Notes: a model not told the origin generated them from the letters alone. 64,000 bases of DNA from an uncultured Verrucomicrobiae bacterium (GCA_963762565.1 CAVXLD010000003.1:160001-224000); one strand, 5' to 3'. Counted from the first letter of the stretch, positions 6,677-63,468 are shown. Numbers and translations are program-made.

Positions 6677-6987
6677 AGCGTATTAGGGGCTAAAACGAAT
6701 TTGGGTGACGCGTTGTGGGAGTCAACGGGAAAACGGGGGGCGCGGAGTGATGGAGTGGTGCGGGAGGGCGCGCGTCCCCGCGCGCCGCGAACAGGTCTGC
6801 ATGGTGGATACACGCAAACGCTCGCACTGGTCTGTCCTGGGCTCTCCGAACCGCGGATCGCGAGGATCCGACTTCGCCAAAGCTAGGAGAAAAGAAGCCC
6901 CAAACCGAAGGCTATGTCGGACAGGCTGCGATCCCTCCCGTCGATGGGCCCGTGTTCATCGGGCGACGAGAACGAAGGTGGTCTCTT

Positions 6988-7563
6988 TCAGGCCTCCCCA
7001 ATTCGCTCCCAAATCCCTTCGTAACGAACGGTGAGCCCAGTCTCATCGACATCGATTAGGGCGGTAAAACCACTGGCGAGGCTCCGGTAGCGATAGGTCC
7101 GGTCGGACAAACGTTCATAAGACTGGCGGGCGTAGACTATCTCTAGCGACGGGAACCGAATCCACGCGGCGGCGATTTCTTCCGATTGGCCGACAGCGAG
7201 GTTAAGGCGCTTGATGGGTAAACTATTCGTGATCGGTGACAGCTCAAGGTCAACGTCGAGGCAGCCGGTCAAGGTGTCGATAGCACCCGAGCCATGGACA
7301 CTCCAATTGCTATCGCTGTCCACGGAGAGCGACAAAGCCGACCGTTCTAGACCAAGACGTTGTTCGATTGAGACGGTTCGGGTCCGCCAATCGGCGTCGC
7401 ATTCGATCCGGTAATGAACCTCTAACGGAGCGTTCTCATGGATGGCGACAATTGTGCCGGTCAACTCGACGCCCAAAGTCAATCCCCGGGCGACAGCATA
7501 CTCGAGGCTGTTATTGTCCATGATCCGCCGCCAGCAAAGCGCGCGATCAGTTAATGCCGTCAT
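6988..7563 (-). CDS. Putative glycolipid-binding domain protein (DUF1089-like)
   Basis: YRIECDADWRTR, GCLDVDL..SPITNSLPIKRL, Q.YERL, VDETGL..YEG.W. Confidence 0.85.
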   Translation of the reverse strand: MTALTDRALCWRRIMDNNSLEYAVARGLTLGVELTGTIVAIHENAPLEVHYRIECDADWRTRTVSIEQRLGLERSALSLSVDSDSNWSVHGSGAIDTLTGCLDVDLELSPITNSLPIKRLNLAVGQSEEIAAAWIRFPSLEIVYARQSYERLSDRTYRYRSLASGFTALIDVDETGLTVRYEGIWERIGEA

Positions 7564-7743
7564 GGCTAGTTATTATCGTCGTTGTCGGTTTTCTTGCGAA
7601 AAGCAGTCCTTCAGGATAAACCGCGACGATTTATACAAGGTACAAGGAAAAGAACAAGCCTAAAACCGATTGCAAAAAATCCTTGAAAATCCCAGATCTG
7701 CCTCGCTATTGAATCCAAACAAGCAACCGGAGAACTCCATATT

Positions 7744-8535
7744 ATGACAGCGTTTCCCAGAGAGCTTTGGGCCATGTTCGTGGATTGCCCTGCGGATGAG
7801 CTGGCGCCTTGCTATTTCTACGAATATTCGCGTGAGAGCAAAAGCCTGCGCGAGATGTGCGCTAACGACCGCCCAGGTATTCCTGCGGGCGTTAGCAACG
7901 GGTTCGACTACTATCTATCAACGCCGTGGTCAACCGCTCACGAAGAGTTGATGACTGACCCGGCAAGAACCTTCATGCTTTGGCCAGAATGGCCCGATAA
8001 ACCGTATCTGCAAATTCCAGCAGAAGAACGAAGGAGACGGTTACGCTGGTCAGCTAAGGACGACCCTAAGATCGCTCACTTGAAAAAGCTGTCTTTCTTC
8101 GCGATGACGCAACTTAGTCCGGAAGGTCTACGTCCGGTGAGCCGAGCCGGAGCGACCGGTCCGTCGGGGGAAGGTTGGTCAGAAGCGCTGGCGGTTTCGC
8201 GGGAAAAATTGGGGTGGCCCGTGCATCAGGTCAACGCATCGATGTGGGAAACCGTGTTCCGGATCGATTGGAAAGCCTTTTCCGACGCTCAACTTGTCGA
8301 TATGTTCAAAGCGTGGCTGGACAAATATCGCCCCACGCCGTCCAACGTTCTAACCGAGAACCCATCGGTTACGAACCGTTTTGAAACTCACTTAAAACAG
8401 CTCGGGGCGCTCCGAATCTCGAGAAAGTTTAAAGAAGAGGAGATTCCACCGGAGCTTGTTGTTTATCAAGACAAGAGCGAAGGGGCCAGAGCAAAGCTGG
8501 TGGCTCAGGGCGTGATTGAGTGGTTCTCGGTTTAG
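7744..8535 (+). CDS. Hypothetical protein, possibly related to mobile-element transcription activators
   Basis: 263-aa ORF with AT-rich upstream region; C.FYEYSRES, IDW..SD.QL...F..WL, LKQLGALRI. Confidence 0.7.
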   Translation: MTAFPRELWAMFVDCPADELAPCYFYEYSRESKSLREMCANDRPGIPAGVSNGFDYYLSTPWSTAHEELMTDPARTFMLWPEWPDKPYLQIPAEERRRRLRWSAKDDPKIAHLKKLSFFAMTQLSPEGLRPVSRAGATGPSGEGWSEALAVSREKLGWPVHQVNASMWETVFRIDWKAFSDAQLVDMFKAWLDKYRPTPSNVLTENPSVTNRFETHLKQLGALRISRKFKEEEIPPELVVYQDKSEGARAKLVAQGVIEWFSV

Positions 8536-8555
8536 CCTGCCTGCCTCGCGAATTG

Positions 8556-10780: not shown

Positions 10781-10802
10781 GCATTTTTCACCCACCGCCA
10801 CT

Positions 10803-16494: not shown

Positions 16495-16504
16495 CTTGAG
16501 TAGC

Positions 16505-16715: not shown

Positions 16716-16719
16716 AAGA

Positions 16720-46099: not shown

Positions 46100-46309
46100 A
46101 TTTCACTTTCCCGAACTGCTCCGGCGGAGTTTCACGAAAACTGTGTCGTGAGGCTAGTCGATAGTGGCAGCTGTAGAAACAACAGAACTGCTTAGCGCTG
46201 GGCCGTACTCGGGAGCCGCCTGCTGCCAACATGCAGAACTTCGAAATTACAAAGCGGCTCCCCTCCAGGCTTGAACGCTCTTCGCGCTTTTGTTTACATC
46301 CTTCGCCAA

Positions 46310-47059
46310 ATGGCTGACTGGCTGAGTTCCACTGCCGGCGGGAGTCTACGATTCGAAACCACACAATGGAGCTTGGTCTCCGCGGCGGCAGCAGAGGACC
46401 AGCAGAACCGTGCCGCCTTCGAGGATCTGTATCGCAGTTATTGTCACCCGGTCTATGCATTCATCCGGCGACGAGGTTATGCCCGTCAAGATGCTCAGGA
46501 TTTAACTCAAGACTTCTTTCTCCATCTCTCGGAGAAGAATGCGTTTATCCGGGCAGATCCCAATCGGGGGAAGTTTCGTAGCTTTCTTTTAGGATCCCTG
46601 CAGTTCTTTCTGCAACATGCTGAAGAACGGGCGAGAACCGAAAAGCGCGGGGGTCATGCCAGAATGATTTTTATCGATGATGAAACTGCCGAGGCCAAAT
46701 ATCAATTGACGGATCAGAGACAAAACGCGGAACAAGTCTTTGACGCACGCTGGGCGGCAACGCTGATCCAAGGCACGGTCAACCGTCTAAAGACGGAGAT
46801 GGAGTCGGCGGGAAAAGCGGGCTTATTCGAGCAAATCCGTGGGTTCTTGATTGATGGCGAAGATGCTTCTTACCAGGAGATCGCGGAGCGGACTGGGTTA
46901 ACCCTGGGGGCAGTCAAGTTAACGATTCATCGAATGAGAGCGCGCTACCGGGAACTACTGCGGGCGGAGGTCGCGAGAACGGTGGTCAGTTCGGCGGATT
47001 TCGAGCAAGAGATACAAGCGCTGCGGGAATCCTTACAAAGCGGTTATTTGGCGGCTTGA
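46310..47059 (+). CDS. ECF sigma-70 factor, copy 2
   Basis: Near-identical to 30587-31339 over long stretches; start MADWLSS. Confidence 0.92.
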   Translation: MADWLSSTAGGSLRFETTQWSLVSAAAAEDQQNRAAFEDLYRSYCHPVYAFIRRRGYARQDAQDLTQDFFLHLSEKNAFIRADPNRGKFRSFLLGSLQFFLQHAEERARTEKRGGHARMIFIDDETAEAKYQLTDQRQNAEQVFDARWAATLIQGTVNRLKTEMESAGKAGLFEQIRGFLIDGEDASYQEIAERTGLTLGAVKLTIHRMRARYRELLRAEVARTVVSSADFEQEIQALRESLQSGYLAA

Positions 47060-47063
47060 ACTT

Positions 47064-47164
47064 GTGTCCTGTCCCATAAATAACGTGGCTTTCGTTGCGA
47101 TCAAAATGGGCCGCCGGCAAGGCGGCTGCCGGGCGAAAGCCACGTTACTTATGGGACAGGACAC
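47064..47164. mobile_element. MITE-like element with 31-bp terminal inverted repeats
   Basis: GTGTCCTGTCCCATAAATAACGTGGCTTTCG vs CGAAAGCCACGTTACTTATGGGACAGGACAC (1 mismatch); flanks CTTG / CTAG. Confidence 0.7.
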
Positions 47165-47235
47165 TAGGCACCGGGTGGCAGGAGAGGTTAGCGATTGCCC
47201 GTAGTCTGCTTTTCCGCTAATGCGTTATCGGAATT

Positions 47236-49644: not shown

Positions 49645-50057
49645 GCATCGCTCTATTCCTTAAATTTGGTTTTGCGCCGGATTAATCTCTGGGAAGCGAC
49701 AGGGGGCGGAACGGCGAAAGGGCCAAAGGGCGAAAGGGCGAAAGGGCGAAAGGGCGAGGGGAGGGATCGCGTCCTCGCGATCCGTTGTTCGCGGAGATGG
49801 GCGGGTTTGGGTAAAGAGGAATCCAATAAACCGGTAGGTTTGGAACGTCTTCGCGGCGCGCGGGGACGCGATCCCTCCCCTCGCCACATCGCCCGCACGG
49901 CTGATCATTTCGGGCGTCGGCGCGTTTACTCGGAAAAAAACTCCGAAACCTTGCGCGTGGAATCCGTGATTTGTGGATTATGCGGCTTAAGCGTAAGCAA
50001 GTTTGTAAATCCGGCATATCGATTCTCACGGCTTGCCGGCCTATGATCATGCGATCC

Positions 50058-50501
50058 ATGAGAAGAATCAGTCTCGTAATATTCTGTTGCCTGTTCCCGT
50101 TTGTTACCGGAATTGGTTTAGCGAATCCCTCCGAAGCGCTTAAACAGCTCGAAAAGGCCCCATTTTTTCCCTTTGGCGGGGTCGGAGTTGTGGGAAGCCG
50201 GTCGCCCAGCGACACCCTTTTTCTTGAACTCGTGAACGACCCGAATAAGGCCGCGTTGTTTCATTCTCTCTGGGAAGGGGGAAACGACCAAGCCAAGTGC
50301 TATGCTCTACTCGGGCTCTATTGGCTAAAGGATCCGGACGCCGATCGATTTGCTCAGCACCTCATTTTTTGGCATGTATCCGTCGCGACCGCTCACGGCT
50401 GCATGGTTGGGATGAAGGAAGAGGTTGCCACCTTCATTGATAGCCTTAAGTCGGGTCAACATATCAGGTATTATTTTCCTGAATTAGTGGCCGCGCATTA
50501 G
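50058..50501 (+). CDS. Secreted hypothetical protein
   Basis: Signal peptide; F.FGGVG..G; K.YALLGL; HGC. Confidence 0.75.
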   Translation: MRRISLVIFCCLFPFVTGIGLANPSEALKQLEKAPFFPFGGVGVVGSRSPSDTLFLELVNDPNKAALFHSLWEGGNDQAKCYALLGLYWLKDPDADRFAQHLIFWHVSVATAHGCMVGMKEEVATFIDSLKSGQHIRYYFPELVAAH

Positions 50502-50537
50502 GCCGGAAACAAAACAAGAAATGGACACATTCACACG

Positions 50538-51311
50538 ATGAAACTCTCACAAGTCGCCGCCCAGCTTTACACCGTCCGAGATTATCTTTCGGACTCAGCT
50601 TCGTTTGCCAAGAGTGTCGAACGCTTGAAAGCGATCGGTTATCAAGCGGTTGAGCTGATTCCTTCCAATACGATCAGCGACAAAGAGGTTGCGGCCATCT
50701 GCCGGGATGCGGGCGTCGCGGTCGCTGCCGCGCATCTGCCGGGCAAGACGCTGTTGGAAGAACCAAAGGCGATGGTGGAAAAATTGCAGACGGTAGGGGC
50801 GAAGCTTGGGGTATACGCTTTTCCCGGTGGAGTCGACCTGAGTTCGGGGGAGCGAGTTAATCGTTTAGCCGACCAGCTTGAGAAGGCCGCCGCGGTTCTC
50901 GTCGGGCACGATCTGATTCTGGCTTATCATAATCATGCTTTTGAGTTTTCCCGGCTTGATGGTGAGCTGGTGTTCGAAATTCTGCAGAAACGCGCTCCGG
51001 CTATGTCGTTCGAGTTCGATACTTATTGGGCGCAATACGGTGGCGTCAGTCTCGAACGATGGATCCAGCGACTAGGCAGTAAGCTGGTAAGCCTACACAT
51101 GAAAGATTACGGGGTGCCGGCGAAACATAATGATCCGCCTTTTATGGCCGAGGTTGGTTACGGTAACCTCGATTTTCAAATTCTGGTTACCGAAGCGGAA
51201 AAGGCCGGCTGCCAATGGTTCGTAGTGGAACAGGATTTCACCCAGCGAAACGCGTTCGATTCGCTGGAAATGAGTTTTCGGTATGTGAAAGAGAAGCTGG
51301 TGGGGGATTGA
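50538..51311 (+). CDS. Sugar phosphate isomerase/epimerase (xylose isomerase-like TIM barrel)
   Basis: QLYTVRD, YHNHAFEF, EFDTYW, LHMKD, VVEQD. Confidence 0.93.
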   Translation: MKLSQVAAQLYTVRDYLSDSASFAKSVERLKAIGYQAVELIPSNTISDKEVAAICRDAGVAVAAAHLPGKTLLEEPKAMVEKLQTVGAKLGVYAFPGGVDLSSGERVNRLADQLEKAAAVLVGHDLILAYHNHAFEFSRLDGELVFEILQKRAPAMSFEFDTYWAQYGGVSLERWIQRLGSKLVSLHMKDYGVPAKHNDPPFMAEVGYGNLDFQILVTEAEKAGCQWFVVEQDFTQRNAFDSLEMSFRYVKEKLVGD

Positions 51312-51656
51312 TTGGTAGGGCGAGGCTCCCGAAGGGCCTGAGAGGGTGCGCAACGCGAGTCGCGTTTGCTGTATGTCCGTCTGCAGTGCCGAAGAGTTGC
51401 CGAGCCGAGACCCAGCGTGTGCCACGTTGGGTTAATCGATTGAAGGGCGGCGGGTGAAGACGGAACCACGTTCGACGTCTTAGGGCCCGACCCCGTGATA
51501 GACCCGGCTCGGCGGCGCATCGGCCCAATGCGTAAAACCGTGGTTCAAGTGCAGTAGTCTCTGGAAAGCCGAAAGGATCGTGCGGGAGCCTCGCCCCACC
51601 AAATTCTAGCCGCTTGTCTATATCCTACTGGTATGGTAGGCATTGTGGCGTAACCG

Positions 51657-52619
51657 ATGAACCTGCCGAACCGCATCATCCCAAAACTCCGACACTGCGT
51701 AACTCCGATACTCCGCTGGTTCGCTGCTGCTATCCTCGTGAGTCCCATCGCTTGTAACGCGTTGACTCTCCGGATCGGATACCAAAAGGCGGCCAGCACG
51801 TTGGTCTTGCTGAAGGCTCATGGCACGCTGGAAAAGAAGCTCGCGCCGTCACACGTCGACGTGAAATGGCTCGAGTTCGCTGCCGGTCCGCAACTTTTGG
51901 AGGGATTGAACCTCGGCTCAATCGATTTCGGATATGTCGGCGAAGTGCCGCCGGTTTTTGCTTTAGCGGCCGGAGCGCCCCTGGTTTATACCGCGTACGA
52001 GTTGCCCTCTCCCGAGGCCGAAGGGATTTTGGTGCCGAAAGATTCGCCAATTCAGACGATCGCCGATCTAAAGGGGAAAAAGGTTGCTTTCAACAAAGGA
52101 TCCGATGTGCATTGGCTGGTGGTGAAGGCGCTGGAAGACGCCGGGTTGAAGTATGGTGACATTCAGGCTGCTTACTTGACTCCTGCGGATGCCCGGGCGG
52201 CTTTTCAGAATGGCGCCATCGATGCCTGGGCGATTTGGGGTCCTTTTTTCGTCGCGGCGCAGAGACAGCTTGGGGCTCGCGTACTGACCACGGCGAAGGG
52301 AATCGTCAATCGGCATCAATATTTCGTCAGCACGCGCAGTTTTGCCGAGCAGAATCCCGAAGTCCTAAAAATCGTGATACAAGAGCTGGGTGAAGTTGGG
52401 CAATGGGTCCGGAACAATTATTCGCAAGCCGCAAACGAATTGGCCCCGATTCAGGGACTCGATCCTGATATTATCGAGGCGAGTCTCCGTCACTACCAGC
52501 ACGTCTACAAACCGATCGATGACGCCGTGCTGGCCGACCAACAACGAATCGCCGATACGTTTTACGAATTGAAGCTAATCCCGCAAAAGCTTTCGGTGAA
52601 GGACGCGGTGGTGAAGTAG
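51657..52619 (+). CDS. ssuA: Aliphatic sulfonate ABC transporter substrate-binding protein
   Basis: LRIGYQK, WLEFAAGPQLLEGL, LKGKKVAFNKGS, QQRIADTF. Confidence 0.92.
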   Translation: MNLPNRIIPKLRHCVTPILRWFAAAILVSPIACNALTLRIGYQKAASTLVLLKAHGTLEKKLAPSHVDVKWLEFAAGPQLLEGLNLGSIDFGYVGEVPPVFALAAGAPLVYTAYELPSPEAEGILVPKDSPIQTIADLKGKKVAFNKGSDVHWLVVKALEDAGLKYGDIQAAYLTPADARAAFQNGAIDAWAIWGPFFVAAQRQLGARVLTTAKGIVNRHQYFVSTRSFAEQNPEVLKIVIQELGEVGQWVRNNYSQAANELAPIQGLDPDIIEASLRHYQHVYKPIDDAVLADQQRIADTFYELKLIPQKLSVKDAVVK

Positions 52620-52845
52620 GCAAACTTTGGTGGGGCGAGGCTCCTGAACCAACTACGGATCCCCCGAAGCAAACAAGCTTGCTTCGCGTTCAATCAATTT
52701 GTTAGGCCGGTATACGCGCCGAGCCGCGTCCAGTGCTGGGTCACGGCTCGGCGCGCTTGTAGGCCTAATCAAACGATCCAGCAAGACGACCTTGGCTGCT
52801 TCGGGAAATCTGGTGGAACGTTCGGGAGCCTCGCCCCATCAAAAT

Positions 52846-54135
52846 CTATCCAGCCCCTTTCGCCCAGTCTGGAGATTCGCGTAGGCGGAACAACATTTCT
52901 CCGGCTTTTGGGACTAACAGGACGCCCTCATCTTCGCGGTTGGCGTAGTCTTCCGCTCGAATTTCATCCGGGTTGCGGTAACCGAAATTGATTTTCCGGC
53001 AGAGCTCGGGTGAAAGTTGCGTCGCCAGCGTGACCCGGGCGCGCGCTTTTTCTACGCCGTTCTCGTAGGTGCCAATCCCATGGACATGAGTGGAATGGGC
53101 CAGCACGCCCCAAGGATAATGCTTAAACTTGTCCCACTGCTTCAAAAAATAGTCCCGGCAATGGTAACCGATTTCTTCTATCAGCTTACCGTGGGTCACC
53201 GAGATCTCTTTCAGGTGCGGCGCATAAATAATAAGCTCTCCGCCGTCGGCCAAGACCGGCTCCAGCTTATACATGCACTTACCTGCTACCCACATCTCGT
53301 CGTACATCGGCGGGGCGCACGATAAGATGGTGTGAAACGGTTTGTCTTTGTACGTGATATGATACCGCCGGGATAACTCGCTGGCTTCAGGCCAGGTGGC
53401 TTCAGGCGACCCCGCAAAGATACCGGCCAGTTCTCCGTGATCGACTACGAGGCAAAAACAAAGTTTGCTGATCTGAACCATTGCGGCGGATCGATCCACA
53501 ACTCGGCGCACCGGAGTCCACTTGTGCCCGATGATCATTGGGTTGGTGATAACGGCGCCGAGCCAGTGGAAAAAATTCAGAACCTCGGGACCTGAGACAC
53601 CCGGGAACAGATATTTGTTGCCGCCGGAAAAGCCGACGACCTCGTGCGGGAAGACCGGGCCCACGATGATCACTTGATCATATTCAAACAAGCGCCGGTT
53701 TATCTTCACTTCCACCGGCATCGAGAAGAGACCATTCGAAAGCGCAGCTATTTCCTGTTCTGGAATGACACCGATTGGCTGAAGTGAATCCGGATTGTCC
53801 CAATGATGATTAAATACGCCGACATTTCCGTACTGAGTGGACCGTTCGCTGCTCGAGATTTCTAAGCGCTCGCAGATGGCTTCTTCGCTCATGGGAGGAT
53901 GGGTCCCCAGCGCGATCAACACGTCAAACGCGCTCGTTACCGAACCGATCTGAGCATGCAACGTCTTGAATAGAAGCCCAATCGGAGCGGTGCGAGTTCC
54001 GTCCGGGATAATCAGTAGGACGCGTTTTCCCCGGTAATCTTTAGAGGGGCAAACCTGTTCGATCAGACTTTGGACATCTCTGGCACCGAGAGTGGTTCCT
54101 GCCTCAGCCGTTTTTGAAATAACCGCCTGGCTCAT
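52846..54135 (-). CDS. Lactate racemase (LarA) superfamily protein
   Basis: IIPDGTRT, ALGTH, FPHEVVGFSGGNKY.FPG. Confidence 0.9.
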   Translation of the reverse strand: MSQAVISKTAEAGTTLGARDVQSLIEQVCPSKDYRGKRVLLIIPDGTRTAPIGLLFKTLHAQIGSVTSAFDVLIALGTHPPMSEEAICERLEISSSERSTQYGNVGVFNHHWDNPDSLQPIGVIPEQEIAALSNGLFSMPVEVKINRRLFEYDQVIIVGPVFPHEVVGFSGGNKYLFPGVSGPEVLNFFHWLGAVITNPMIIGHKWTPVRRVVDRSAAMVQISKLCFCLVVDHGELAGIFAGSPEATWPEASELSRRYHITYKDKPFHTILSCAPPMYDEMWVAGKCMYKLEPVLADGGELIIYAPHLKEISVTHGKLIEEIGYHCRDYFLKQWDKFKHYPWGVLAHSTHVHGIGTYENGVEKARARVTLATQLSPELCRKINFGYRNPDEIRAEDYANREDEGVLLVPKAGEMLFRLRESPDWAKGAG

Positions 54136-54218
54136 AAAGCTAATATTCACCACAGAGACACAGAGAACACGGAGGAATTTTCACCACAAAGACACAAAGG
54201 ACACGAAGACGGAAAACG

Positions 54219-54493
54219 AACCGCAGATTAGAGAAAATTTAAATATCCGCAGATTACGCAGATTACGCAGATTTCGTTTTGTGGCTGCGGCCCGATCGGG
54301 GTTCATTCCTGGCTCGGTTCCCAACGTTGGCCTGTCTTTAAAAGCGCCTTTTCTTTGTAACCTTTTGCTTCCGAGAACACGGAAAGCCGTGCCGCTACAA
54401 AAGGCTTGTTTAAGTTAGTGGTATACCCGACTGCGACCGAAATCTGCGTAATCTGTGTAATCTGCGGATAATCCAATCTCTTCATCTGCGGTT
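54219..54493. repeat. Family F inverted-repeat element (CGCAGATTA nonamer arms)
   Basis: AACCGCAGAT...TATCCGCAGATTACGCAGATTACGCAGATTTCG and inverted partner; preceded by CACAGAGAC-type nonamers at 54146-54208. Confidence 0.88.
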
Positions 54494-54552
54494 AGATTTT
54501 TGGTCGTGGTCCTTCGTGTCCATTCGCGGTTAATCGTGGTAAGAGGGGTGCG

Positions 54553-55269
54553 ATGGGATCCCAAGATATAACGCATAACTCCAGCTTTTATGTGAGCCTA
54601 GGCTTGCAGGCGGCGGCTATCCTTGTGCTGCTGGGACTAGCGATCGTTGGAATTGTTATTGCCGTCCGGGCAAAGACAGGAACCGGTAAGGGGTGCGGCG
54701 TTGTGATGGCAATTGCCTTTGCATTGCAATCCTGTTTGGTCGTGCTCTGGTTTCTAATCTCCTTGGCTGCCGGTTTAGAATCCAGCTCATCTAAAGCAGG
54801 CCAGATGCAGACGGTTCAGGCTAAGGATGGTTCTTGCGAAATCTCCGTGCCTAAATCTTGGGTTGATTGCGGGGATCTAAGTAAAGAAGCCGTGCTCGGC
54901 TCCAAAGACCCGACTGGGAATGAATATGTTCTCGTCTTTGTACACTCGAAGCAAGACTACGCGGGAGGCTTGGATGATTTCGCCAAGGATTATACCGATT
55001 CGTTGCGACAGAAAATCCAGACGCCTCAAGTAGAACCGCCGACTTCGATGTCGATCAACGGAAGGTCCGCCGTCCGTCAGCTCGTGCGTGGCGAAGTCGA
55101 TCGACTGCGAATCGTCTATCGCATCACCTATTTCGAAGGCCGCGACAATTTCTATCGGATATTCTGCTGGAGCCTTGATTCGAAAGCCGCGTCGGTGGCG
55201 GCTGACTTCGACAAGATAGCGGAGTCATTGCATGAAAAGGTCGCTACCAAGGGTGAAGACCACATCTGA
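54553..55269 (+). CDS. Hypothetical membrane protein (two TM plus PsbP/DcrB-like domain)
   Basis: Two N-terminal TM segments; ISVPKSW, INGRSA, F.KI..S pattern. Confidence 0.75.
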   Translation: MGSQDITHNSSFYVSLGLQAAAILVLLGLAIVGIVIAVRAKTGTGKGCGVVMAIAFALQSCLVVLWFLISLAAGLESSSSKAGQMQTVQAKDGSCEISVPKSWVDCGDLSKEAVLGSKDPTGNEYVLVFVHSKQDYAGGLDDFAKDYTDSLRQKIQTPQVEPPTSMSINGRSAVRQLVRGEVDRLRIVYRITYFEGRDNFYRIFCWSLDSKAASVAADFDKIAESLHEKVATKGEDHI

Positions 55270-55470
55270 ACCGCAGATGAAGAGATTAGATTATCCGCGG
55301 ATTACGCAGATTACGCAGATTACGTTCTGGGTCTGCGAGGCGGTGGCACGATAAACACATCACCTCGCAGCATCCGCGCTCTGTTTTACCCGGCAGCATC
55401 CCGCGCCTAGAAGCGAAATCTGCGAAATCTGCGTAATCTGCGGATAATCCATCTCTTCATCTGCGGTTCA
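55267..55470. repeat. Family F inverted-repeat element filling the whole gap between convergent genes
   Basis: TGAACCGCAGATGAAGAGAT... / ...ATCTCTTCATCTGCGGTTCA. Confidence 0.9.
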
Positions 55471-56430
55471 GGGGGCGGCGAGTGTGGCGGCAAACAGGTC
55501 GCTATCGATGTTGCCGCCGCTGTGGATGACGGCGACCCGCCGGCCCTGCATTTGGGCGCGTTCTTGCAGGAGCGCTGCTAACGGCGCGGCAGCAGCGCCT
55601 TCCGCTGCATTGTGGGTATCAGCGAAGAGATAACGGATCGCACCGCCGATCTCGTCGTCAGTGACTGACACAATGCGAGCGACCCCGTTGAGAATGACGT
55701 CCAAAGCGTTTAGATCCGGAACTCGGCAGCTAATCCCGTCTGCCATGGTATTGACGGTCTCGGTAGTGATTTGGCGCTTAGCCTCAAAAGAGAGGGCGAA
55801 AGCCGGCGCGCCAGTAGCACAGACACCGATAACCTCGGTCTTGAGTCCCAGGGCGTTCCGAGCTGCGACCACACCGCAGACTCCCGACCCCATACCGATT
55901 GGAACATAAACCGTGTCCAAACCAGAGACATTATCGAACAACTCCAGGGCATAGCTGGCGACGCCGCGGACGAGTGCTTCGTCAAAAGAAGGGACGAAAT
56001 GCAGCCTCTCTTTTTCGGCGAGTACCGCAGCGTACTCTAGTGCTTCTTGAAAATCTTTTCCGCGGACGATCAAGTCAGCGCCGAGCGCCTGCATGGCGGC
56101 GTTCTTCTCTACGCTGTTCCCGTGCGGGACAACGATCACGGCGCGCAGCCCGGTACTTTGAGCGGCGAAAGCGATACTTTGACCATGATTGCCTCGCGTG
56201 GCCGTGATCACACCCGTTACGTCGGGCTCTCGCTGCTTGAGCTCGTTCATGTAAACTAAGCCGCCGCGTACCTTAAACGAGCCCACCGGTTGATGGTTCT
56301 CGTGCTTAACCCAAACCTCGGCGCCGGTTCGTTGGCAGAGCAACGGCCAACAGATTTGCGGCGTCGGCGGCAGAATGCTGTGAACAAATTCTGCGGTTGT
56401 CCGGAGCTGTTTAAGCGTGGACGAGAGCAT
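55468..56430 (-). CDS. PLP-dependent threonine/serine dehydratase
   Basis: KHENHQPVGSFKVRGG, TRGNHG, PIGMGSG, SGGN. Confidence 0.93.
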   Translation of the reverse strand: MLSSTLKQLRTTAEFVHSILPPTPQICWPLLCQRTGAEVWVKHENHQPVGSFKVRGGLVYMNELKQREPDVTGVITATRGNHGQSIAFAAQSTGLRAVIVVPHGNSVEKNAAMQALGADLIVRGKDFQEALEYAAVLAEKERLHFVPSFDEALVRGVASYALELFDNVSGLDTVYVPIGMGSGVCGVVAARNALGLKTEVIGVCATGAPAFALSFEAKRQITTETVNTMADGISCRVPDLNALDVILNGVARIVSVTDDEIGGAIRYLFADTHNAAEGAAAAPLAALLQERAQMQGRRVAVIHSGGNIDSDLFAATLAAP

Positions 56431-56580
56431 GAAGAAATAGCAAATAGCAGATAGCAAATTTAGCCGAGTGCCCTGGTCATCCCCATCCAGCGCTTCCCTA
56501 TTTATTGGCGTCTCTATCTGCGTAAATCTGCGTTCATTTCACCCCGGAGAATTTCGGGGCTGCGGTTAAGGTGTCTTCTA

Positions 56581-57048
56581 CTAGCCTGGGAGAACATCGA
56601 TGATCGCCTCGATCTCAACGGCGATGCCCTGGGGGAGGCTACCGACTCCGATTGATGTCCGAGCATGCCGGCCGGCGTCACCGAGCAACTCAACAAAAAG
56701 GTCGGAACAACCGTTGATGACCGCCGGTTGATCTCCAAATTCTGGGGCAGAATTTACGAATCCGTTAACCTTAAGAATTCGTTTCACGCGAATTAAGGAA
56801 CCGAGTGCGCCGTTAATCACGGCCAAGATCTGAATTCCGCACAATCGGGCAGCTTCATAGCCTTGTTCTTTGGTGAGATCCTTACCGACTTGTCCGTGAA
56901 CCCAATCGCCATCCTTTGTCTTTGGCCCTTGGCCGGAGACGTAAAGAAGATTATCGGCCCGGGTGAACGGCACGTAGTTCGCCATCGCCTGCGGCAAAGG
57001 CGGCAATGTAATTCCAAGCTTAACTAAACGATCTTCGATGGTTTCCAT
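56581..57048 (-). CDS. RidA/YjgF family enamine deaminase
   Basis: YVSGQ, NGCSDL, GRHARTSIG, AVEIEAI. Confidence 0.93.
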   Translation of the reverse strand: METIEDRLVKLGITLPPLPQAMANYVPFTRADNLLYVSGQGPKTKDGDWVHGQVGKDLTKEQGYEAARLCGIQILAVINGALGSLIRVKRILKVNGFVNSAPEFGDQPAVINGCSDLFVELLGDAGRHARTSIGVGSLPQGIAVEIEAIIDVLPG

Positions 57049-57512
57049 GGGTGGGAAGGGATGGGACGTGGATTGGTGGAGTGGCGGAGTAATGGAGTGA
57101 TGGGGTTTGCTTGAGAATGGTAGCCGTGAATCCGCATGTCGGACAGGTACAGATCGCGGGATTTTTTGAGAGTGGTTGCCAGGAGCCTTGCATTCCGCGT
57201 TGTTCGACCGCGGAGGGGAGCCACATTAGAGACCTCCGACCTCCAGACGACGATCCGGTCTGCTACTGGGCCCGACCTAAACCGTATTCGGCCGTGGCTC
57301 CCATACGCGTGGAACAACCCAAGACATTATCCACGCCCAGGTTGCCGAACGTGCTCCGTGCCCCAGGGCGTCGCGTCTATCCGAACGAGCGAGCTGTAGA
57401 CGATTCCCGCGTCGAGATACCGGCGACCCGAGAACACGGAATGCAACGCCCCTCCGACCTTGGGCTATTAGACCGATCCGCCTAGCTCCTAGATTCTAGC
57501 TCCTAGCTCCTG

Positions 57513-57974
57513 TCAAATCCGTTTCTCGAAACAGAGGGCGGTACTATCGTTCTCGAACGGCGGGAAGTTTGGTATCCGATAAAAGCCTGACTTACCATAC
57601 AGGGCGATCGATTCAGGCTGTTTAGTACCAGTCTCGAGACGGATACGATCGTAATCGAACCCCTGGGCAAGACTTTGTAACCCGTCCAGGATTTTCTTGG
57701 CGATACCATGTCCTCGTTCGTTCGGAAGAACGAACATGCGCTTAATTTCGACAACATCGTCTTCCATGGGGACCAAGGCGCCGCAGCCGACAGCCCGGCC
57801 CTCAACTCGTGCGACCAAGAAGGCGCTTTTTGGCCCTGAAACCAGGGACGGATCGAAATAACCGACATCCGCTGGAGCCGCATCATACCGGTGCCGGACC
57901 TCGTCGACAAAGGCACTCAACAGCGCTTGGGCTTCGGCAGTACTGGGATCTTCGGGGGAAACAGTAATCGTCAT
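57513..57974 (-). CDS. GNAT N-acetyltransferase
   Basis: VGCGAL, EIKRMFV, RGHGIA, LETGTKQPE.IALY..GF; start MTITV. Confidence 0.92.
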   Translation of the reverse strand: MTITVSPEDPSTAEAQALLSAFVDEVRHRYDAAPADVGYFDPSLVSGPKSAFLVARVEGRAVGCGALVPMEDDVVEIKRMFVLPNERGHGIAKKILDGLQSLAQGFDYDRIRLETGTKQPESIALYGKSGFYRIPNFPPFENDSTALCFEKRI

Positions 57975-58176
57975 ACAACGAAAGCTTAAAGATCCCCAAC
58001 GTCGCCTCGAGCCGCTACGGTTGCAAGAGGCGAACATGGCCCCACCAAGTTTCCACCACTCCAATCCTTCTTTGCTATTTGTCATTGCCGCGTAGCGGCT
58101 CGACTACTCCTTCGGTTACCTTAGCTTCGCCAGAAAGTTGCTGCGGTCTGGCTGTCGATCGGGCATAGATGGGCCC

Positions 58177-59160
58177 ATGAAGTGTTCTCTAAGCCTGCTT
58201 TTCATGCTTTCGGCTGTCCTCGCATTGGCGACGCCGGTATCCGCGGCCGGACCGAATGTTTACCCCATTCAGGAAGGTTACGTCGATGCCCACGGTGTGA
58301 TGATCTATTACGTCGAGATGGGTCATGGTTCACCTCTTCTGGTGGTGCATGGCGGCCCCGGCGCTTCACACGATTATTTTCTGCCTTGGTTACTGCCTTT
58401 GGCGCGAACGAATCGGCTCATCTTCATTGACGAGCGCGGATGCGGCCGTTCTGAACGTCTCGAAGATGTCCATCAATACACTATCGAGAACATGGTGGAG
58501 GACGTGGAAGCGGTCCGCACCGCGCTGGGACTCAGTAAGATCAGCTTACTCGGGCATAGCTATGGGGGAGAGCTAGCTCAGGCTTACGCACTCAAATATC
58601 AGGGAAACCTCACTCATCTCATCCTGGCATCGACTTTCCCTTCAGCCAAACAGATGAACGAGGTCCTGGCGCACGAGAAGGCGCAAATGCCGGCCGACAA
58701 ATTGGCTCGACTCGACGAATTGGAGAAGGCGGGCCTTTACGGTAAGGGAGCGATTTGGGAGCATGGCCGTTACTCTGAGGAATACGAAAAACTGGCTTGG
58801 GGCGACGGTTATTTCCCGTTCCTTTTTGGAGCTCATCCTGATTCGAACTACGATCCCACCACGGACAACGCAGGGATGAACTGGGAACTCTACCGCGAGA
58901 TGTGGGGCTCAAATGGCGAATTCGTGATCGACGGCAACCTGAGTTCGGCCGAGTACGTGGACCGTTTACCCACAATCAAAGTGCCGACCCTGGTTATCTG
59001 CGGCGATCATGATGAATGTGATCCGTCTCTTTCCAAGGAAATGCATGAAAAGATCGCCGGCTCGAAACTGGTCATCTTGCCAAATTCGGGTCATATCGCT
59101 TTTGAGGACCAGCCCGGTTTGTGGATCGGCAGTGTCCGAGATTTTATCAATGGGAAGTGA
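58177..59160 (+). CDS. Proline iminopeptidase-family alpha/beta hydrolase with signal peptide
   Basis: HGGPG, GCGRS, GHSYGG, GDHDE, SGH. Confidence 0.9.
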   Translation: MKCSLSLLFMLSAVLALATPVSAAGPNVYPIQEGYVDAHGVMIYYVEMGHGSPLLVVHGGPGASHDYFLPWLLPLARTNRLIFIDERGCGRSERLEDVHQYTIENMVEDVEAVRTALGLSKISLLGHSYGGELAQAYALKYQGNLTHLILASTFPSAKQMNEVLAHEKAQMPADKLARLDELEKAGLYGKGAIWEHGRYSEEYEKLAWGDGYFPFLFGAHPDSNYDPTTDNAGMNWELYREMWGSNGEFVIDGNLSSAEYVDRLPTIKVPTLVICGDHDECDPSLSKEMHEKIAGSKLVILPNSGHIAFEDQPGLWIGSVRDFINGK

Positions 59161-59164
59161 GAGG

Positions 59165-59465
59165 TGACCCCCGTGGAGCGCTGCCTCGCTTGCGAGGCCG
59201 AAAGGGGTCGCCACCCGTGGAGCGCGCCTCGCTTGCGAGGCCGAAGGGGTCGCCACCCGTGGAGCGCGCCTCGCTTGCGAGGCCGTGGTGAGCAAGGGGT
59301 AACGATTCAGCAGGCCTATCATTTGTCGGCCCTCTTTAGTGCGAATTGTGGTCCAACAGTGGGGCAGACTCTCGAACCCACGTGACATAGAGCGCAGATA
59401 GGATGTGGGTTTGTCTAACATCACGCCTTGCTCACCACGGCCTCGCAAGCGAGGCAGCGCTCCAC
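59165..59465. repeat. Three tandem family A REPs (44/42-bp period) plus an inverted partner
   Basis: GTGG feet at 59173, 59217, 59259; partner 59428-59465. Confidence 0.92.
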
Positions 59466-59504
59466 GAGGCCTTTCACTTTTTACCTTTCACGCTACGGTG
59501 CCCT

Positions 59505-60698
59505 GTGACTACAGCTCCAACGTTATCTGACGCCACAAAGCTCGGGTTCTCACCTCAACGGCTTGAACGGCTTCATCGGCAAATCGAATCGTTCGTCGGC
59601 GACGAGAAACACGCTGGTATCAGCGTCCTCTTGCTTCGCAAAGGCCGAGTAGCGGATTTTTTTGCGGTTGGACTGCGAGACCGGCAGACAGGAGCACCGA
59701 TGCAGGGCGATTCGATCGTCCGGATTTATTCTCTGACCAAAATAATCACGAGTGTGGCGGCTCTGACCCTTATCGAAGAAGGGAAACTGGGTTTGCAACA
59801 TCCCATCAAACAATATCTGCCTGAGTTCAACGAGATGCAGATCCTGGTGGGCGGCACTGCGCAGCATCCGGAACTAATTGCAGCCAATGTCCCAATCGAC
59901 GTTCATCATTTGTTCACTCATACCACCGGATTTACTTACGGGGATAAGGAAGGGCTAATCGACGAGATTTATCAGGGCGCTGGTTTGGAAAAAGCTGAGT
60001 CATTGGCGGATCTGGTCAGAATGTTAGCGACGCTACCGCTAAAGAGAGAGCCAGGGCTCATGTTCCAATATGGTTTCTCGACCGACATTTTGGCGCGCGT
60101 CGTGGAGGTCGTTAGCGGCCAATCATTCGATCTCTTTGTCAAAGAACGGATCTTGGATCCACTTGGGATGACGGATACCGGGTTCAGTGTCGGCCCGGAG
60201 AAACTCGATCGCTTGGCCAAGGTTTATGAGCACGGCAAAAACGGAGAGCTTCAGCCCGTCCAACGTTTCGAATTTGAAGAGATCGAGGGACGAAAGGATT
60301 TTCCGATGGGCGGTTCAGGTCTATTTTCGACGATCGAAGATTACAGCCGTTTCGCGCAGATGTTGTGTAACGGAGGTGAGCTCGACGGGGTAAGAATCCT
60401 GGGCCGAAAAACGTTTGAGCAGATGACAGTTGATCATCTTGCAGGCAAACCGGTGGTGGACCAGCCCTTTACCCAAGGATACGGCTTTGGACTGGGAGTC
60501 GCAGTCCGCATCAATAATGGGTTAGCCGGTACATTAGGAACGCTGGGTGCATTTGGCTGGAGCGGTAAAGCGACTACTCTGTGCGTCATGGACCGGACAG
60601 AAGAACTGGTACTGCTCGTCTTCAGCCAACACTTCCCATACGACGAACACGGTCTGTTCGAGCGGTTCACGAACCTGGTTTACCAGGCGGTGGTGTGA
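59505..60698 (+). CDS. Serine hydrolase, beta-lactamase/esterase family
   Basis: YSLTK, LFTHTTG, FQYG, LGM.DT, GGSGL, FGWSG; GTG start inferred. Confidence 0.92.
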   Translation: MTTAPTLSDATKLGFSPQRLERLHRQIESFVGDEKHAGISVLLLRKGRVADFFAVGLRDRQTGAPMQGDSIVRIYSLTKIITSVAALTLIEEGKLGLQHPIKQYLPEFNEMQILVGGTAQHPELIAANVPIDVHHLFTHTTGFTYGDKEGLIDEIYQGAGLEKAESLADLVRMLATLPLKREPGLMFQYGFSTDILARVVEVVSGQSFDLFVKERILDPLGMTDTGFSVGPEKLDRLAKVYEHGKNGELQPVQRFEFEEIEGRKDFPMGGSGLFSTIEDYSRFAQMLCNGGELDGVRILGRKTFEQMTVDHLAGKPVVDQPFTQGYGFGLGVAVRINNGLAGTLGTLGAFGWSGKATTLCVMDRTEELVLLVFSQHFPYDEHGLFERFTNLVYQAVV

Positions 60699-60764
60699 GG
60701 AGCGGGGCGGAGCCGAAACCCAAAAAGTCTAAATCTCACGCAAAGCTCCGTGTTTGCTCAACTT

Positions 60765-61042
60765 CTGGAGGGGAGCCGCTTTGGCCCGTATATCGCCACC
60801 CTCGCAAAGTTCGTCTCAACGCGCGTGCGGCCTAAGCGCGTGAAAAACAGGCGGCTCCCGAGAACGGCCCAACGGTCTGCAGTTCTATCGGTGGGGCGTG
60901 AACGAAATCGGAAGGCGCAGGCTAAATGCAGCACGCTGGGTGGTTTCCGGGAGCCGCATGTTGTGACATTTTTTGGCCGGATGAAGCACTGAAACGAACA
61001 GCGCGAGACCGTACGATAAATTCCAAAGCGGCTCCCCTCCAG
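60765..61042. repeat. Family C cruciform REPIN
   Basis: CTGGAGGGGAGCCGCTTTGG / CCAAAGCGGCTCCCCTCCAG with inner GCGGCTCCC / GGGAGCCGC; halves also at 36-98, 5500-5562, 46209-46270, 57212-57302. Confidence 0.9.
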
Positions 61043-61081
61043 GCTTGGCAAACGTCGAGGCGCCGGTGACTTTAATCAGCT

Positions 61082-61759
61082 GTGCGTCCTTTGATCAGCA
61101 TCATTGTTCCGGTTTGGGGAGACGACGACTTGGTAGCCGAGTTAGTGAATGGCTTGCCAAGTGCTAGTGAGCTTTGCGAATGGATCGTGGTGGCAGTTCG
61201 TCCTGGCGAAGTGCTCACAGATTTGGATCGGCAAGGGGCGATCCGATTGATTCCCTGCAATCAACCATCACGCGGCAGGCAACAGAATCTGGGCGCGAGC
61301 GTTGCCCGGGGAGAATTGCTTTGCTTTCATCATGCCGATTCTGAGCTAAAGCCTGAACATTTGGCTGCGCTGGCGGAAGCAGCGAAAAATGAGCAAATCG
61401 TGGGAGGCGCTTTTCATCGCCGATTTCATCCGGCGAGAATGCTATGGCGAGAGCCATTGGTGCGGGCTATCAGCCGCTTTGCTGGACCGCTGTTTGGTGA
61501 TCAATCTCTATTTGTGAGGTCCACGGTCTTTCGAGAGATGGGTGGGTTCGCCAATTTCCCTTTGATGGAAGACGTCGAATTTTCCCGGCGCCTGCGGCGC
61601 GCTGGCCGCGTTGAATTGCTGGATCCGCCACTATGGTCACCGCCCCGGCGGTCCGGTACCTGGAGAACGGCGATACGGAACGCGGCGCTGATCGGCCTTT
61701 TCTATCTTGGGATTGAGCCTCGCGCCTTGCATCGCTGGTATTATCGGCGGGAGCGGTAA
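61082..61759 (+). CDS. GT2 glycosyltransferase, TIGR04283 (arsenosugar-associated) type
   Basis: ISIIVPV, RGRQQNLGA, FHHADS, FGDQ.LFV, PLMEDVEF. Confidence 0.85.
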   Translation: MRPLISIIVPVWGDDDLVAELVNGLPSASELCEWIVVAVRPGEVLTDLDRQGAIRLIPCNQPSRGRQQNLGASVARGELLCFHHADSELKPEHLAALAEAAKNEQIVGGAFHRRFHPARMLWREPLVRAISRFAGPLFGDQSLFVRSTVFREMGGFANFPLMEDVEFSRRLRRAGRVELLDPPLWSPPRRSGTWRTAIRNAALIGLFYLGIEPRALHRWYYRRER

Positions 61760-62086
61760 TTGTGCGAAAGGGCGAAACAGCGAAGGAGCGAAGGAGCGAA
61801 AAAGCTTGGCCGGGCGAGGCAAATTGGGGGAGGGCGCGCTGCCTGTCCGACATAGCCTTATGCATCCAATCGGTTTTTCTTCGAGCGGGGCGACGTCGGA
61901 TCCCCGCGCGCCGTGAGGACGTGCCACAACCCAAACGTGTATTTTTGTCCGCGATCGGAACACGTACTCGGCTTCGGCAACCATGGATCGCGAGGACGCG
62001 ATCCCTCCCCGGACCGGAGCCTCGCCCCACCAAACTTTTTTTTGCGTTCCTTGCGCTCTTTTGCAGCTATGCTTCTTCACTGTCTT

Positions 62087-63079
62087 GTGACTACGCCCAC
62101 CAATAGTCGAGTGGATAGGCAAAGCTTTTCTGGGACCTTGACGGCTCACGGTCTAACCTTGCGCCGAAGCCGGACCGAGATTTTGCAGCTGAACCTCGGC
62201 AAACTATGCGACCTCACTTGTGTTCATTGTCATGTCAATGCCGGGCCGAAACGTAAAGAGGTTATCACCCGCGAGACCGTCGAGCGAATTCTTAGCTGGT
62301 TAGCGGTTACCAACATTCCGATCGTGGATATCACGGGAGGCGCACCAGAGATGGCGCCGGACTTTCGTTATCTTGTCGAAAAGATCCGGCAGATGCCACA
62401 GGTCGAAAAGATTATCGACAGGTGCAACCTGACAATTCTACTTGAACCCGGCTACGAATGGGTTGCTGAGTTTCTGGCTGTTCAGCGGGTGAAGATTGTC
62501 GCTTCCATGCCTTGTTATCAGCCGGCGAATGTCAATGCCCAGCGTGGAGACGGCGTTTTTGACCTCAGTATCCGCGGTCTCCAGCTCCTCAATCGTCTCG
62601 GTTACGCTCGTCGGCCAGATCTGACGCTTGATTTGGTTTACAACCCGAACGGCGACTTTCTGCCGCCAGACCAGACCGAACTTGAGGCGGATTATAAACG
62701 CGAACTGAAGCTGAACTTCGACGTCGATTTTAACCGGCTTTACACCATCACCAACATGCCTATCGGACGATTTGCCGCTCGGCTAAGACACAATGATAAA
62801 CTGGACGCCTATACGGATTTGCTGATGGAAGCCTTCAATCCTGCTTCCGTCGCCGGTCTTATGTGTCGGAACACCCTCAGTGTCGGCTGGCGAGGCGAGG
62901 TCTATGATTGCGACTTTAATCAACAATTGGGGATGCAACGGGGTAAAGGAAAACCGCTCTTCGTTTGGGACCTCGATCCGGAGCAACTGGCCGGCCAAGC
63001 AATTATGGTGGGTAACCACTGTTTCGGATGCACGGCGGGAGCAGGCAGTTCGTGTGGAGGAGCGCTGGTGGCCTCCTGA
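62087..63079 (+). CDS. arsS: Radical SAM protein ArsS (arsenosugar biosynthesis, Cys-rich C-domain)
   Basis: CDLTCVHCHVNAGP, DITGGAPE, LMCR, YDCDFNQ, HCFGCTAGAGSSCGG; GTG start inferred. Confidence 0.92.
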   Translation: MTTPTNSRVDRQSFSGTLTAHGLTLRRSRTEILQLNLGKLCDLTCVHCHVNAGPKRKEVITRETVERILSWLAVTNIPIVDITGGAPEMAPDFRYLVEKIRQMPQVEKIIDRCNLTILLEPGYEWVAEFLAVQRVKIVASMPCYQPANVNAQRGDGVFDLSIRGLQLLNRLGYARRPDLTLDLVYNPNGDFLPPDQTELEADYKRELKLNFDVDFNRLYTITNMPIGRFAARLRHNDKLDAYTDLLMEAFNPASVAGLMCRNTLSVGWRGEVYDCDFNQQLGMQRGKGKPLFVWDLDPEQLAGQAIMVGNHCFGCTAGAGSSCGGALVAS

Positions 63080-63468
63080 ATAGCAAATAGCAAATAGCAG
63101 ATAGCAAATGGCCGCTGGGCAGAGGTTGGCGCGCCCACCCCAGCGAGGTCGCATGGTGCAAATCGGGGAGGGCGCGCTGCCTGTCCGACATAGCCTGGTG
63201 CATCCGGATGATTTTCTCCCACAGGGGCGACGTCGGATCCCCGCGCGCCGCGAAAGCGTGGCAACACCTCAGGGCGTCGAGTAACCCAGGGTTGGGAACA
63301 CGATGGGCTTTGCGAAAGTCGGATCGCGAGGATCCGCCGTCGCCATTTTGTTTAAGAAAACGGTGATTAAAACCAGGGCTATGGCGGACAGGCAGCGATC
63401 CCTCCCGGGCGATGGAGCCGCAAGCCGTCAGTTGCCGAACAATCGTGGCAGGATAGGCTGACTATTGG

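Follow-up and report, generated by a model that had tools for sequence, protein, structure and literature searches.

How does a hairpin of 30 to 100 nucleotides come to lie, at one fixed position, inside other palindromic repeats? The question is raised by a 64,000-nucleotide stretch of DNA (hereafter the window) from an uncultured Verrucomicrobiae bacterium (GCA_963762565.1), which covers positions 160001-224000 of contig 3 in a 6.12-Mb assembly of 15 contigs with 54% G+C. The window contains eight copies of a hairpin element, here termed X, six of which occupy the loops of larger hairpins of a family of repetitive extragenic palindromic (REP) sequences, family B. Analysis of these copies, and of their counterparts in the same and in other genomes, suggests that X is probably, if by no means certainly, a REP-like, non-autonomous hairpin module with a minimal unit of about 30 nt, which is now, or was recently, mobile on its own. 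Its independence as a module is argued for by the exact registers that recur in its hosts, by its presence with and without each of these hosts, by identical copies in unrelated hosts and by a bias in strand.

The left-arm pattern of X (CYTGTCCGMCRWAGCC, 16 nt, at most one mismatch) matches the window at positions 168, 6910, 38287, 44225, 44450, 61842, 63180 and 63377, where 0.03 matches are expected by chance, and a count of eight was reached in none of 100 shuffles of the window. Reading of the sequence gives the limits of all eight copies as the original prediction had drawn them, and also places six of them in family-B REP hairpins. These REPs are of two types, GC (GGGAGGGCGCGC...GCGCGCC) and AT (GGGAGGGATCGC...GCGATCC), are termed filled when X occupies the loop and empty otherwise, and form inverted doublets around a spacer (REPINs). 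On the minus strand, X lies within the loop of a REP at 6867-6927 (61 nt; AT-type REP at 6855-6939, minus strand), 38245-38304 (60 nt; GC-type REP at 38233-38316, minus strand), 44406-44467 (62 nt; GC-type REP at 44394-44479) and 63333-63394 (62 nt, with the stem variant TCCGCC/GGCGGA; AT-type REP at 63321-63406), and on the plus strand at 61840-61900 (61 nt; GC-type REP at 61827-61912) and 63178-63237 (60 nt; GC-type REP at 63165-63249). The copy at 61840 is part of a half-filled REPIN (61827-62010, plus strand), in which the filled GC-type REP is followed by a spacer and an empty, inverted AT-type REP at about 61986-62010, with the loop GTCCTC on its own strand. The REPIN at 63165-63406 (plus strand) has both its REPs filled, as had been claimed, and is one of 12 such among 203 doublets in the genome; the single-base difference between the loops of the copies at 38245 and 63178 is likewise real. 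The remaining two copies, at 166-262 (plus strand) and 44145-44242 (minus strand), belong to a class of ~95 nt, lie in GAGGAC/GACGAC word repeats and carry a second hairpin, termed H, in their apical loops (214-230 and 44178-44194, respectively). In the copy at 166-262, AGC and the hairpin replace one G of the word repeat TTCGAGGAC-G-AGGACGAC, whose empty sites in the genome number 61 with this G and none without it. No Rfam family reached its gathering score on either strand of the window.

What kind of hairpin is X? Genome-wide, 233 sites match the left-arm pattern and a looser scan yields at least 231 copies with both arms, with length classes of 29 nt (25 copies), 57-60 nt (114 copies) and 94-96 nt (57 copies). 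The minimal unit, C-YTG-TCCGMC-RWA-GCY-TT-RGC-GAM-GKCGGA, is an imperfect hairpin composed of a 5' single-stranded tail (C-Y-T-G), a 6-bp outer stem (TCCGMC/GKCGGA), a 3x3 internal loop (R-W-A opposite G-A-M), a 3-bp inner stem (GCY/RGC) and an apical loop with a cargo of 2 to ~67 nt, and the longer classes vary from it solely in the content of the apical loop. Among 228 copies, the six outer and three inner stem pairs are canonical in 89-100%, and the predicted covariation of TCCGAC/GTCGGA with TCCGCC/GGCGGA is upheld by double changes at three pairs: stem position 5 is A-T in 153 and C-G in 61 copies, position 1 is T-A in 203 and C-G in 18, and position 12 is C-G in 161 and T-A in 39. The three positions between the stems are conserved though never complementary; the A opposite G is kept in 218 of the 228 copies, and where R faces M, 109 copies have A.C, 102 have G.A and 13 are mixed. 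Since the A-T/C-G switch of the stem is found within both internal-loop types, it arose more than once. An alignment of 17 distinct minimal copies, taken from four genomes, has 96.1% of its cells paired, as against 88.4% in shuffles; its covariation was matched by none of 500 shuffles, and shifting the structure by 1-3 columns lowers the score greatly. The nested stems, a three-level nest included, are recovered by DNA folding. The asymmetry of X, with its one-sided tail and fixed mismatches, would fit the needs of strand-specific recognition of a folded single strand.

The copies are found mostly outside long reading frames, 31 of 228 lying within open frames of at least 300 codons compared to 148 of 228 random positions. 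The notion that X, or the word repeats with their acidic look, might be coding was rejected, since element lengths of 94, 95 and 96 nt keep no multiple of three. Two places outside the window may be recorded here: in contig 3 of the same genome (G000; about 39040-39320), three X, two in a B REPIN and one in a word repeat, lie within a 1978-codon stop-free frame, and in contig 5 (about 384914-384943) a bare 30-nt X sits within a 1012-codon stop-free frame and might have added 10 codons, in frame, to a large gene.

How X joins its main host can be read from the comparison of empty and filled REPs. These were counted by two methods, a script of our own, which gave 565 B REPs (445 empty and 120 filled), and pattern counts, which gave 397 empty and 122 filled. 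By the script, 240 GC-type REPs are empty, 51 are filled by the ~60-nt class and 19 by the 30-nt unit, and the corresponding numbers for the AT type are 205, 48 and 2. Throughout the genome, empty loops read GTCC[C/T]C and filled ones [T/A]GC-CTGTCC...GGA-TCC[C/T]C. The C/T polymorphism of the loop occurs in similar proportions in empty and filled REPs, the ratio GTCCCC:GTCCTC being 130:69 empty and 43:17 filled in the GC type, and 52:113 empty and 8:32 filled in the AT type. Other conceivable empty forms of the main hosts (without G, with WG or with GA) occur 0-2 times, compared to 161-185 occurrences of the G forms; the main junction is thus one G out and WGC plus hairpin in, and the replacement of a single loop G, first proposed from the window, holds genome-wide. 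The W is T or A, rarely G or C, and varies with the loop sub-type of X, which indicates that it is inherited with X. Target duplication, which had been reported as lacking, is indeed absent from the G-class junctions, and some exact insertions are flanked by one shared base (read by eye). Among the 203 GC-spacer-AT doublets, both REPs are empty in 136, the GC type alone is filled in 30, the AT type alone in 25 and both in 12, where about 7.6 would be expected under independent fills. Five B loops, in a separate observation, read TGCCTC, TGCCCC or AGCCTC and not GTCC[C/T]C (e.g., contig 1, about 444743), and may be deletions of X between short CC(T) repeats which left the WGC prefix behind. In genome G012 (contig 2, 1157550-1157850), a REPIN with two filled REPs is fused via the X loops, the intervening part being deleted.

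Is X then bound to REPs? For each of 118 copies outside family B, the reconstructed empty site was sought elsewhere in the genome. The left flank minus three bases, a G and the right flank together describe the empty sites of 62 of these copies (up to 82 sites each), and none of the 62 has a genome match for the exact-insertion form of the empty site. Their hosts are the word repeats TTCGAGGAC-G-AGGACGAC and GACGAGGAC-G-AGAACGAAGC and the decamer repeat TCCATTCGC-G-TCCATTCGCGG. Seven other copies are exact insertions of C-YTG...GG(A), with 163, 38, 12, 9, 6, 1 and 1 empty sites; of the rest, five have 1-2 doubtful empty-site matches and 44 have none. Altogether, X is found in at least eight unrelated flank contexts. 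The unpaired sites that it occupies are, in B, the apical loop; in the H hairpin (GGCCTCGC-AA-GCGAGGC), the loop; in a GTAG-type palindrome, the centre; and in X itself, the internal loop. In the H hairpin, a 30-nt X is exactly inserted in the loop, the hairpin in turn lying within the loop of an X (two copies, contig 5). An X within the internal loop of another X (contig 12) is also an exact insertion, the inner element being placed between W and A of the outer internal loop. Of 31 relatives, 8 have this self-nest junction, with 15 occurrences in all, a triple nest among them, as against no occurrence of the reversed control; the nests represent at least four different outer/inner sequence combinations, and further cases are found in four distant genera. 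Outside X, the H hairpin is present in 419 copies; another 60 lie in the loop of X, where it accounts for the ~95-nt class, and the ~30-nt loop fillings of B-hosted X occur solely inside X. The description of X as structure-targeted is partly supported: unpaired hairpin positions are hit, yet 62 copies lie in hexamer or decamer word repeats and obey the same junction rule. To call it a parasite of REPINs is too narrow: B REPs are occupied, yet so are word repeats, and H itself nests inside X. REPIN residence is one of several habits of the element.

The distribution of X across genomes bears on the same point. Among 30 relatives, the pattern is present in all five genomes of the same genus and in three other genera with 11-124 copies, and is missing from most of the others. 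Between close relatives, copy number varies from 0 to about 200. A covariance model built on the 30-nt unit (E ≤1e-4; with 48 candidates scored per genome, its counts are lower bounds) matches at least 59 of 151 genomes and 40 of 79 genera, sampled across the phylum. Its scores reach 53 bits, equal to those of the training copies, and contexts in distant genera show the unit almost letter for letter. The composite is also found in metagenome-assembled genome (MAG) records titled Verrucomicrobiota (L032, L039, L069, L089 and L104). The exact 16-mer together with the right arm, in X-like minimal hairpins, was seen, in addition, in MAGs titled Planctomycetota, Neomarinimicrobiota, Proteobacteria and Babeliales (L132, L126, L086 and L106; position 201 onward), which could reflect spread beyond the phylum or mis-binned contigs.

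X also occurs without B. Sites of X and of B number 35 and 0 in G015, 11 and 0 in G016, 91 and 8 in G004, and 45 and 2 in G005, and the X of G015 and G016 is mostly the bare 30-nt unit with other flanks. The ratio of filled to empty B REPs varies between genomes (122:397, 54:132 and 20:161), and filled REPs are present in each of the four largest spacer classes as well as in four smaller classes among those listed. Among X pairs with at least 94% identity, 26 of 35 on the AT side (both 100% pairs included) and 2 of 16 on the GC side join different spacer classes, the latter including the window pair 38245 and 63178; spacer identity in such cross-class pairs is 0.51-0.66, and the background for unrelated classes is 0.585. 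The prior claim that X is separable, and no sub-part of the B repeat, is borne out by its at least eight flank contexts, by the genomes which lack B, by its phylum-wide reach and by near-identical X across unrelated spacers. In a FastTree phylogeny of 198 spacers, a weak tree built on 73 columns, 40 filled REPs require 37 changes of filled state, compared to 36.8 in shuffles.

A further trait is the orientation of X with respect to replication, for which local GC skew (±50 kb, |skew| ≥0.01) served as proxy. In 65 of 95 filled B REPs, the X strand that bears the CYTG tail coincides with the C-rich strand, whereas the same strand of empty REPs has this orientation in 155 of 335 (Fisher p=1.8e-4). 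In half-filled REPINs, where both orientations are available in place, the filled REP has that orientation in 34 of 44, a result which is stable over skew windows of 15-200 kb. REPINs filled on the AT side only are distributed 18:0, against 58:44 for those with both REPs empty (p=1.3e-4). Orientation bias of such a kind is known for the single-strand transposition of IS200/IS605 elements; on this analogy, it is the complement of the strand drawn in the original prediction that would be active.

The mechanism that we infer is as follows. X would insert into folded single-stranded DNA during replication, its targets being the unpaired bases that lie open in hairpin loops and internal loops. A strand-specific enzyme may recognize X by its conserved tail and by the mismatches of its internal loop; by analogy, this enzyme might be a Y1/HUH transposase of the IS200/IS605 or RAYT (REP-associated tyrosine transposase) kind. 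After insertion, the filled hosts would also be copied as composites.

A number of results, those of the enzyme search below included, weigh against this reading. In GC-type REPs, the distance between X loops follows that between spacers (r=0.44, attained in 0 of 2000 permutations), whereas in AT-type REPs it does not (r=0.06, 346 of 2000 permutations); the idea that filled composites were copied as units is therefore sustained for the former type and not for the latter. Mini-filled REPINs have more similar spacers (0.68 vs 0.87), so part of the spread of X is co-copying, and the loop types of X are mostly host-specific. The commonest junction is no clean insertion, a G being lost and WGC plus X gained, and the linkage of W to the sub-lineage of X favours composite inheritance; we know of no cut-and-paste scheme that would yield this exchange. 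In a comparison of window positions 60500-64000 with five genomes of the same genus, no filled/empty pair at one locus was found, and the public contigs of four sequencing runs, on positions 44001-64000, end at repeats, with none seen bridging an X site. The fold energies of X are ordinary (z-scores of 0.0 to -1.5 relative to shuffles), and the support for its structure is covariation, not stability. The strand bias is uneven: REPINs filled on the GC side only are distributed 10:15, which does not differ significantly from the 58:44 of both-empty REPINs (p=0.18) and does differ from the AT-only distribution (p=3.9e-5), and the ~95-nt class has none (24:26). Moreover, GC skew is an indirect measure of the direction of replication and is correlated with gene orientation as well, a possible confounder. 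Our reading of the whole is that both processes are at work, whereby X enters hosts and the filled hosts are then copied.

In the orthologues of 60500-64000 within the genus, the genes are ~80% identical and the spacers hold different repeats in every species, which implies that spacer content turns over completely at about 80% gene identity. At the spacer 61764-62035, the window has a REPIN, and of the counterparts (L137, L138 and L139) two hold mirrored arrays of words and the other, from a fourth species, a short decamer word. Parts of the stretch are contained in 20 public soil or fungus metagenome runs, among which no RNA run is listed; the soil runs show that strains more than 98% identical to this one exist.

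Which enzyme could move X? Y1_Tnp matches number 12 in the genome. Five of the genes, small and RAYT-like, stand between inverted repeats of their own, of the GTAG-tagged kind in three (arms read by eye). Three of four Y1 proteins of ~348 aa are flanked by GGGGTC-type words, in two of these as inverted pairs (by eye), and these proteins carry NH[YF]H and Y[IV]HLNP-like motifs (comparison by eye). Such motifs characterize a Y1 subclass for which no REP association was found by Quentin et al. (PMC6006769). In none of 21 Y1 loci from five genomes, 13 of them in four relatives, does a complete X stand on both sides. When five X-rich distant genomes were searched for Y1_Tnp, G048 had one weak match, and G137, with 31 X matches, had none. 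In a hand tally of 150 genomes, in which kin are not independent, 27 contain both X and the 348-aa Y1 type, 31 X only, 26 the Y1 only and 66 neither; this is a weak co-occurrence, and in family f23 X is present in 10 of 24 genomes and the 348-aa type in none of the 24. An HUH enzyme (RAYT or TnpA Y1) as the mover of X, which had been suggested from the window, thus finds no backing in these loci and genomes, and the proposal is one of analogy.

A gene located between two X copies 2.4 kb apart in G052 (contig 1, 1829300-1833100) was also considered as a partner and was rejected, the two X lying within inverted repeats of ~650 bp that resemble duplicated tRNA-side DNA. By eye, its translation reads like a large serine recombinase, and the locus looks like an integrative element with an X unit and tRNA-like sequence in each ~650-bp repeat.

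Other explanations of these data may be weighed. X may have gained access to each host family in the distant past, on one or a few occasions, only the composites being copied since then and recombination or gene conversion between the short identical REP stems moving X from one REPIN lineage to another; X itself would be immobile now. The host-specific loop types, the covariation of W with loop sub-type and the Mantel correlation for the GC-type REP all favour such an ancient entry, as does the WGC junction that is common to two genera, which an inherited composite predicts; the odd replacement of a G is also easier to understand as a historical accident that was then copied. However, one junction rule applies in four hosts without flank homology (B, two word repeats and the decamer repeat), exact insertions occur in further unrelated hosts, and self-nesting at one register involves at least four outer/inner pairs in 8 genomes. 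In addition, 100%-identical X is found in REPINs of unrelated spacer class, and conversion does not predict the orientation bias of half-filled REPINs; an entry confined to the distant past is unlikely. X could also be a selected functional motif, such as a binding site for a host protein or a piece of structured RNA, its various contexts then representing recruitment and not mobility. Conservation of 30 nt across the phylum with compensatory changes and a mostly intergenic location would be expected of such a motif, but a copy number of 0 to about 200 among close relatives would not, nor would the nesting of X in X and inside other selfish repeats, and X is not kept in orthologous spacers. 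No Rfam family matches in the window, and no T-run follows the window copies (as judged by eye, not by a scan), which speaks against a terminator. Selection for function is the explanation to which we assign very little probability.

An enzyme dedicated to X might not be needed if hairpins stall replication and the nascent strand switches template to another hairpin and back, so that one of them is copied into the other at its unpaired tip or in its internal loop. Reciprocal nesting is general in this genome (H in X 60 times, X in H and X in X), X-rich genomes without a Y1 gene exist, and an orientation bias fits a replication-linked process. Yet the limits of the element (C-YTG...GGA) are base-exact in unrelated hosts, the junctions, read by eye, have no microhomology beyond at most one shared base, and a tail and mismatched loop conserved throughout the phylum point to recognition by a protein; template switching is improbable as the source of X. 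A bolder proposition, distinctly doubtful in our estimate, is that X is the product of an undescribed form of DNA movement in Verrucomicrobiota, by which a 30-nt hairpin is written into unpaired bases during replication without Y1/HUH, its main mode being to swap one G for the element and two extra bases, and that such nesting built much of the intergenic repeat landscape. The independently mobile, non-autonomous module remains the reading preferred here.

With respect to known systems, X is closest in kind to the REP/REPIN-RAYT repeats: it is a short imperfect palindrome, high in copy number and mostly intergenic, with a mismatched stem, no target duplication and a conserved, unpaired tail of 4 nt 5' of the hairpin foot. 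REPs are defined by the tetranucleotide GTAG or GTGG located 0-2 nt 5' of the hairpin foot (PMC6006769, PMC3733652). The tail of X, by contrast, is C-Y-T-G, in 18 aligned minimal copies and in the other copies listed. X further differs in that no cognate Y1 gene (REPtron) is flanked by it in the 21 loci examined, in forming inverted doublets solely via the host REPIN, and in an apical loop that holds up to ~67 nt of cargo.

The nearest precedent comes from Di Nocera et al. (2013), who sorted REPs into GTAG- and CGTC-tagged families; they also note that some REPs are regularly inserted in other palindromes, with a small REP in the middle of another small palindrome, and that Thermomicrobium roseum contains hundreds of unoccupied target palindromes (PMC3733652). 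X likewise sits inside another palindrome. Their remark is short, concerns GTAG- and CGTC-tagged REPs and comes without junction analysis, whereas X has another tag, at least eight hosts, self-nesting at a fixed internal-loop register, G replacement and strand bias. CGTC-tagged REPs are described there as having a terminal CGTC (or TGTC/CCTC), a stem of 8-9 bp whose first two positions are A-T, a loop of 4-5 nt and a short tail resembling CCA (PMC3733652). X does contain TGTC, but its first pairs are T-A, C-G and C-G, and its stem consists of 6 bp, a 3x3 loop and 3 bp, without a 3' tail. The strings TGTCCG and GTCGGA are absent from the main text of that article (text only, figures and supplements apart). 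A literature search, supplements apart, found no description of X, its self-nesting, its G-replacement junction or its strand bias.

IS200/IS605 elements are comparable to X in their strand-specific hairpin ends with a guide tetranucleotide and in insertion without duplication, and are reportedly, from the work of Ton-Hoang et al. in 2010, coupled to the replication fork, with an orientation bias. They differ in having two distinct subterminal hairpins, where a single hairpin spans the whole of X, and in inserting 3' of one fixed tetra- or pentanucleotide, where no single target word fits all X hosts. Several exact insertions of X, read by eye, have AGC or AG on their 3' side (X nested in X, the loop of H, host E after a 1-nt shift, and the GTAG-type palindrome), but hosts F and B fall outside this pattern and the main junction loses a G. 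The small dispersed repeats (SDR) of heterocyst-forming cyanobacteria are said to have been described by Elhai et al. in 2008 as gene-less modules of a few tens of bases. X is alike in these respects and differs in phylum and in sequence. An SDR5 module precisely inserted in the palindrome HIP1 is cited in a later article (Elhai 2015, PMC4390886). REP hairpins are also reported to serve as landing sites for insertion sequences (Tobes and Pareja 2006, PMC1525189); these carry their own transposase, while X is gene-less and 30-100 nt in length. As in classical miniature transposable elements with inverted repeats (MITEs) of the DDE type, the arms of X are inverted repeats, but there is no flanking duplication beyond an ambiguous single base. 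A small REP-like hairpin nesting in other palindromes is thus an already known kind of object. New in X are the tag, the internal loop with its mismatches, an apical loop that bears cargo, a self-target at a fixed place and a junction that replaces a base, together with the orientation bias and a phylum-wide reach without a linked Y1 gene.

The manner in which small palindromic repeats spread in bacterial spacers is settled for very few of them. X offers base-exact limits, hundreds of filled and empty sites in one genome and a self-target of fixed register as handles on this process; its orientation bias points to single-stranded DNA at the fork, its phylum-wide conservation implies a conserved partner protein, and both partner and reaction are directly testable with oligonucleotides. 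Composite repeat "families" are here stacks of smaller independent modules, and repeat classification and studies of REPIN populations should therefore first dissect them.

Two further repeats are connected with X through its sites of insertion or its cargo. The H hairpin forms 43-nt tandem arrays (GGCCTCGC-AA-GCGAGGC followed by GCTCCAC) in the genome of the window (G000), in contig 1 (L006:2512-2830, about 532712-533030) and in contig 12 (about 464189-464400 and 455844-455930); one such array follows immediately downstream of a Y1 gene of ~348 aa and ends in a unit with a diverged, X-like insert in the hairpin loop. In the window, positions 60765-61044 hold a repeat of ~280 bp with inverted ends of the GGAGGGGAGCCGCTTT type, many copies of which are present in each of the genus's six genomes. 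Among the exact insertion sites of X is the end word of this repeat (CCAAAGCGG^CTCCCCTCC), with 163 empty copies.

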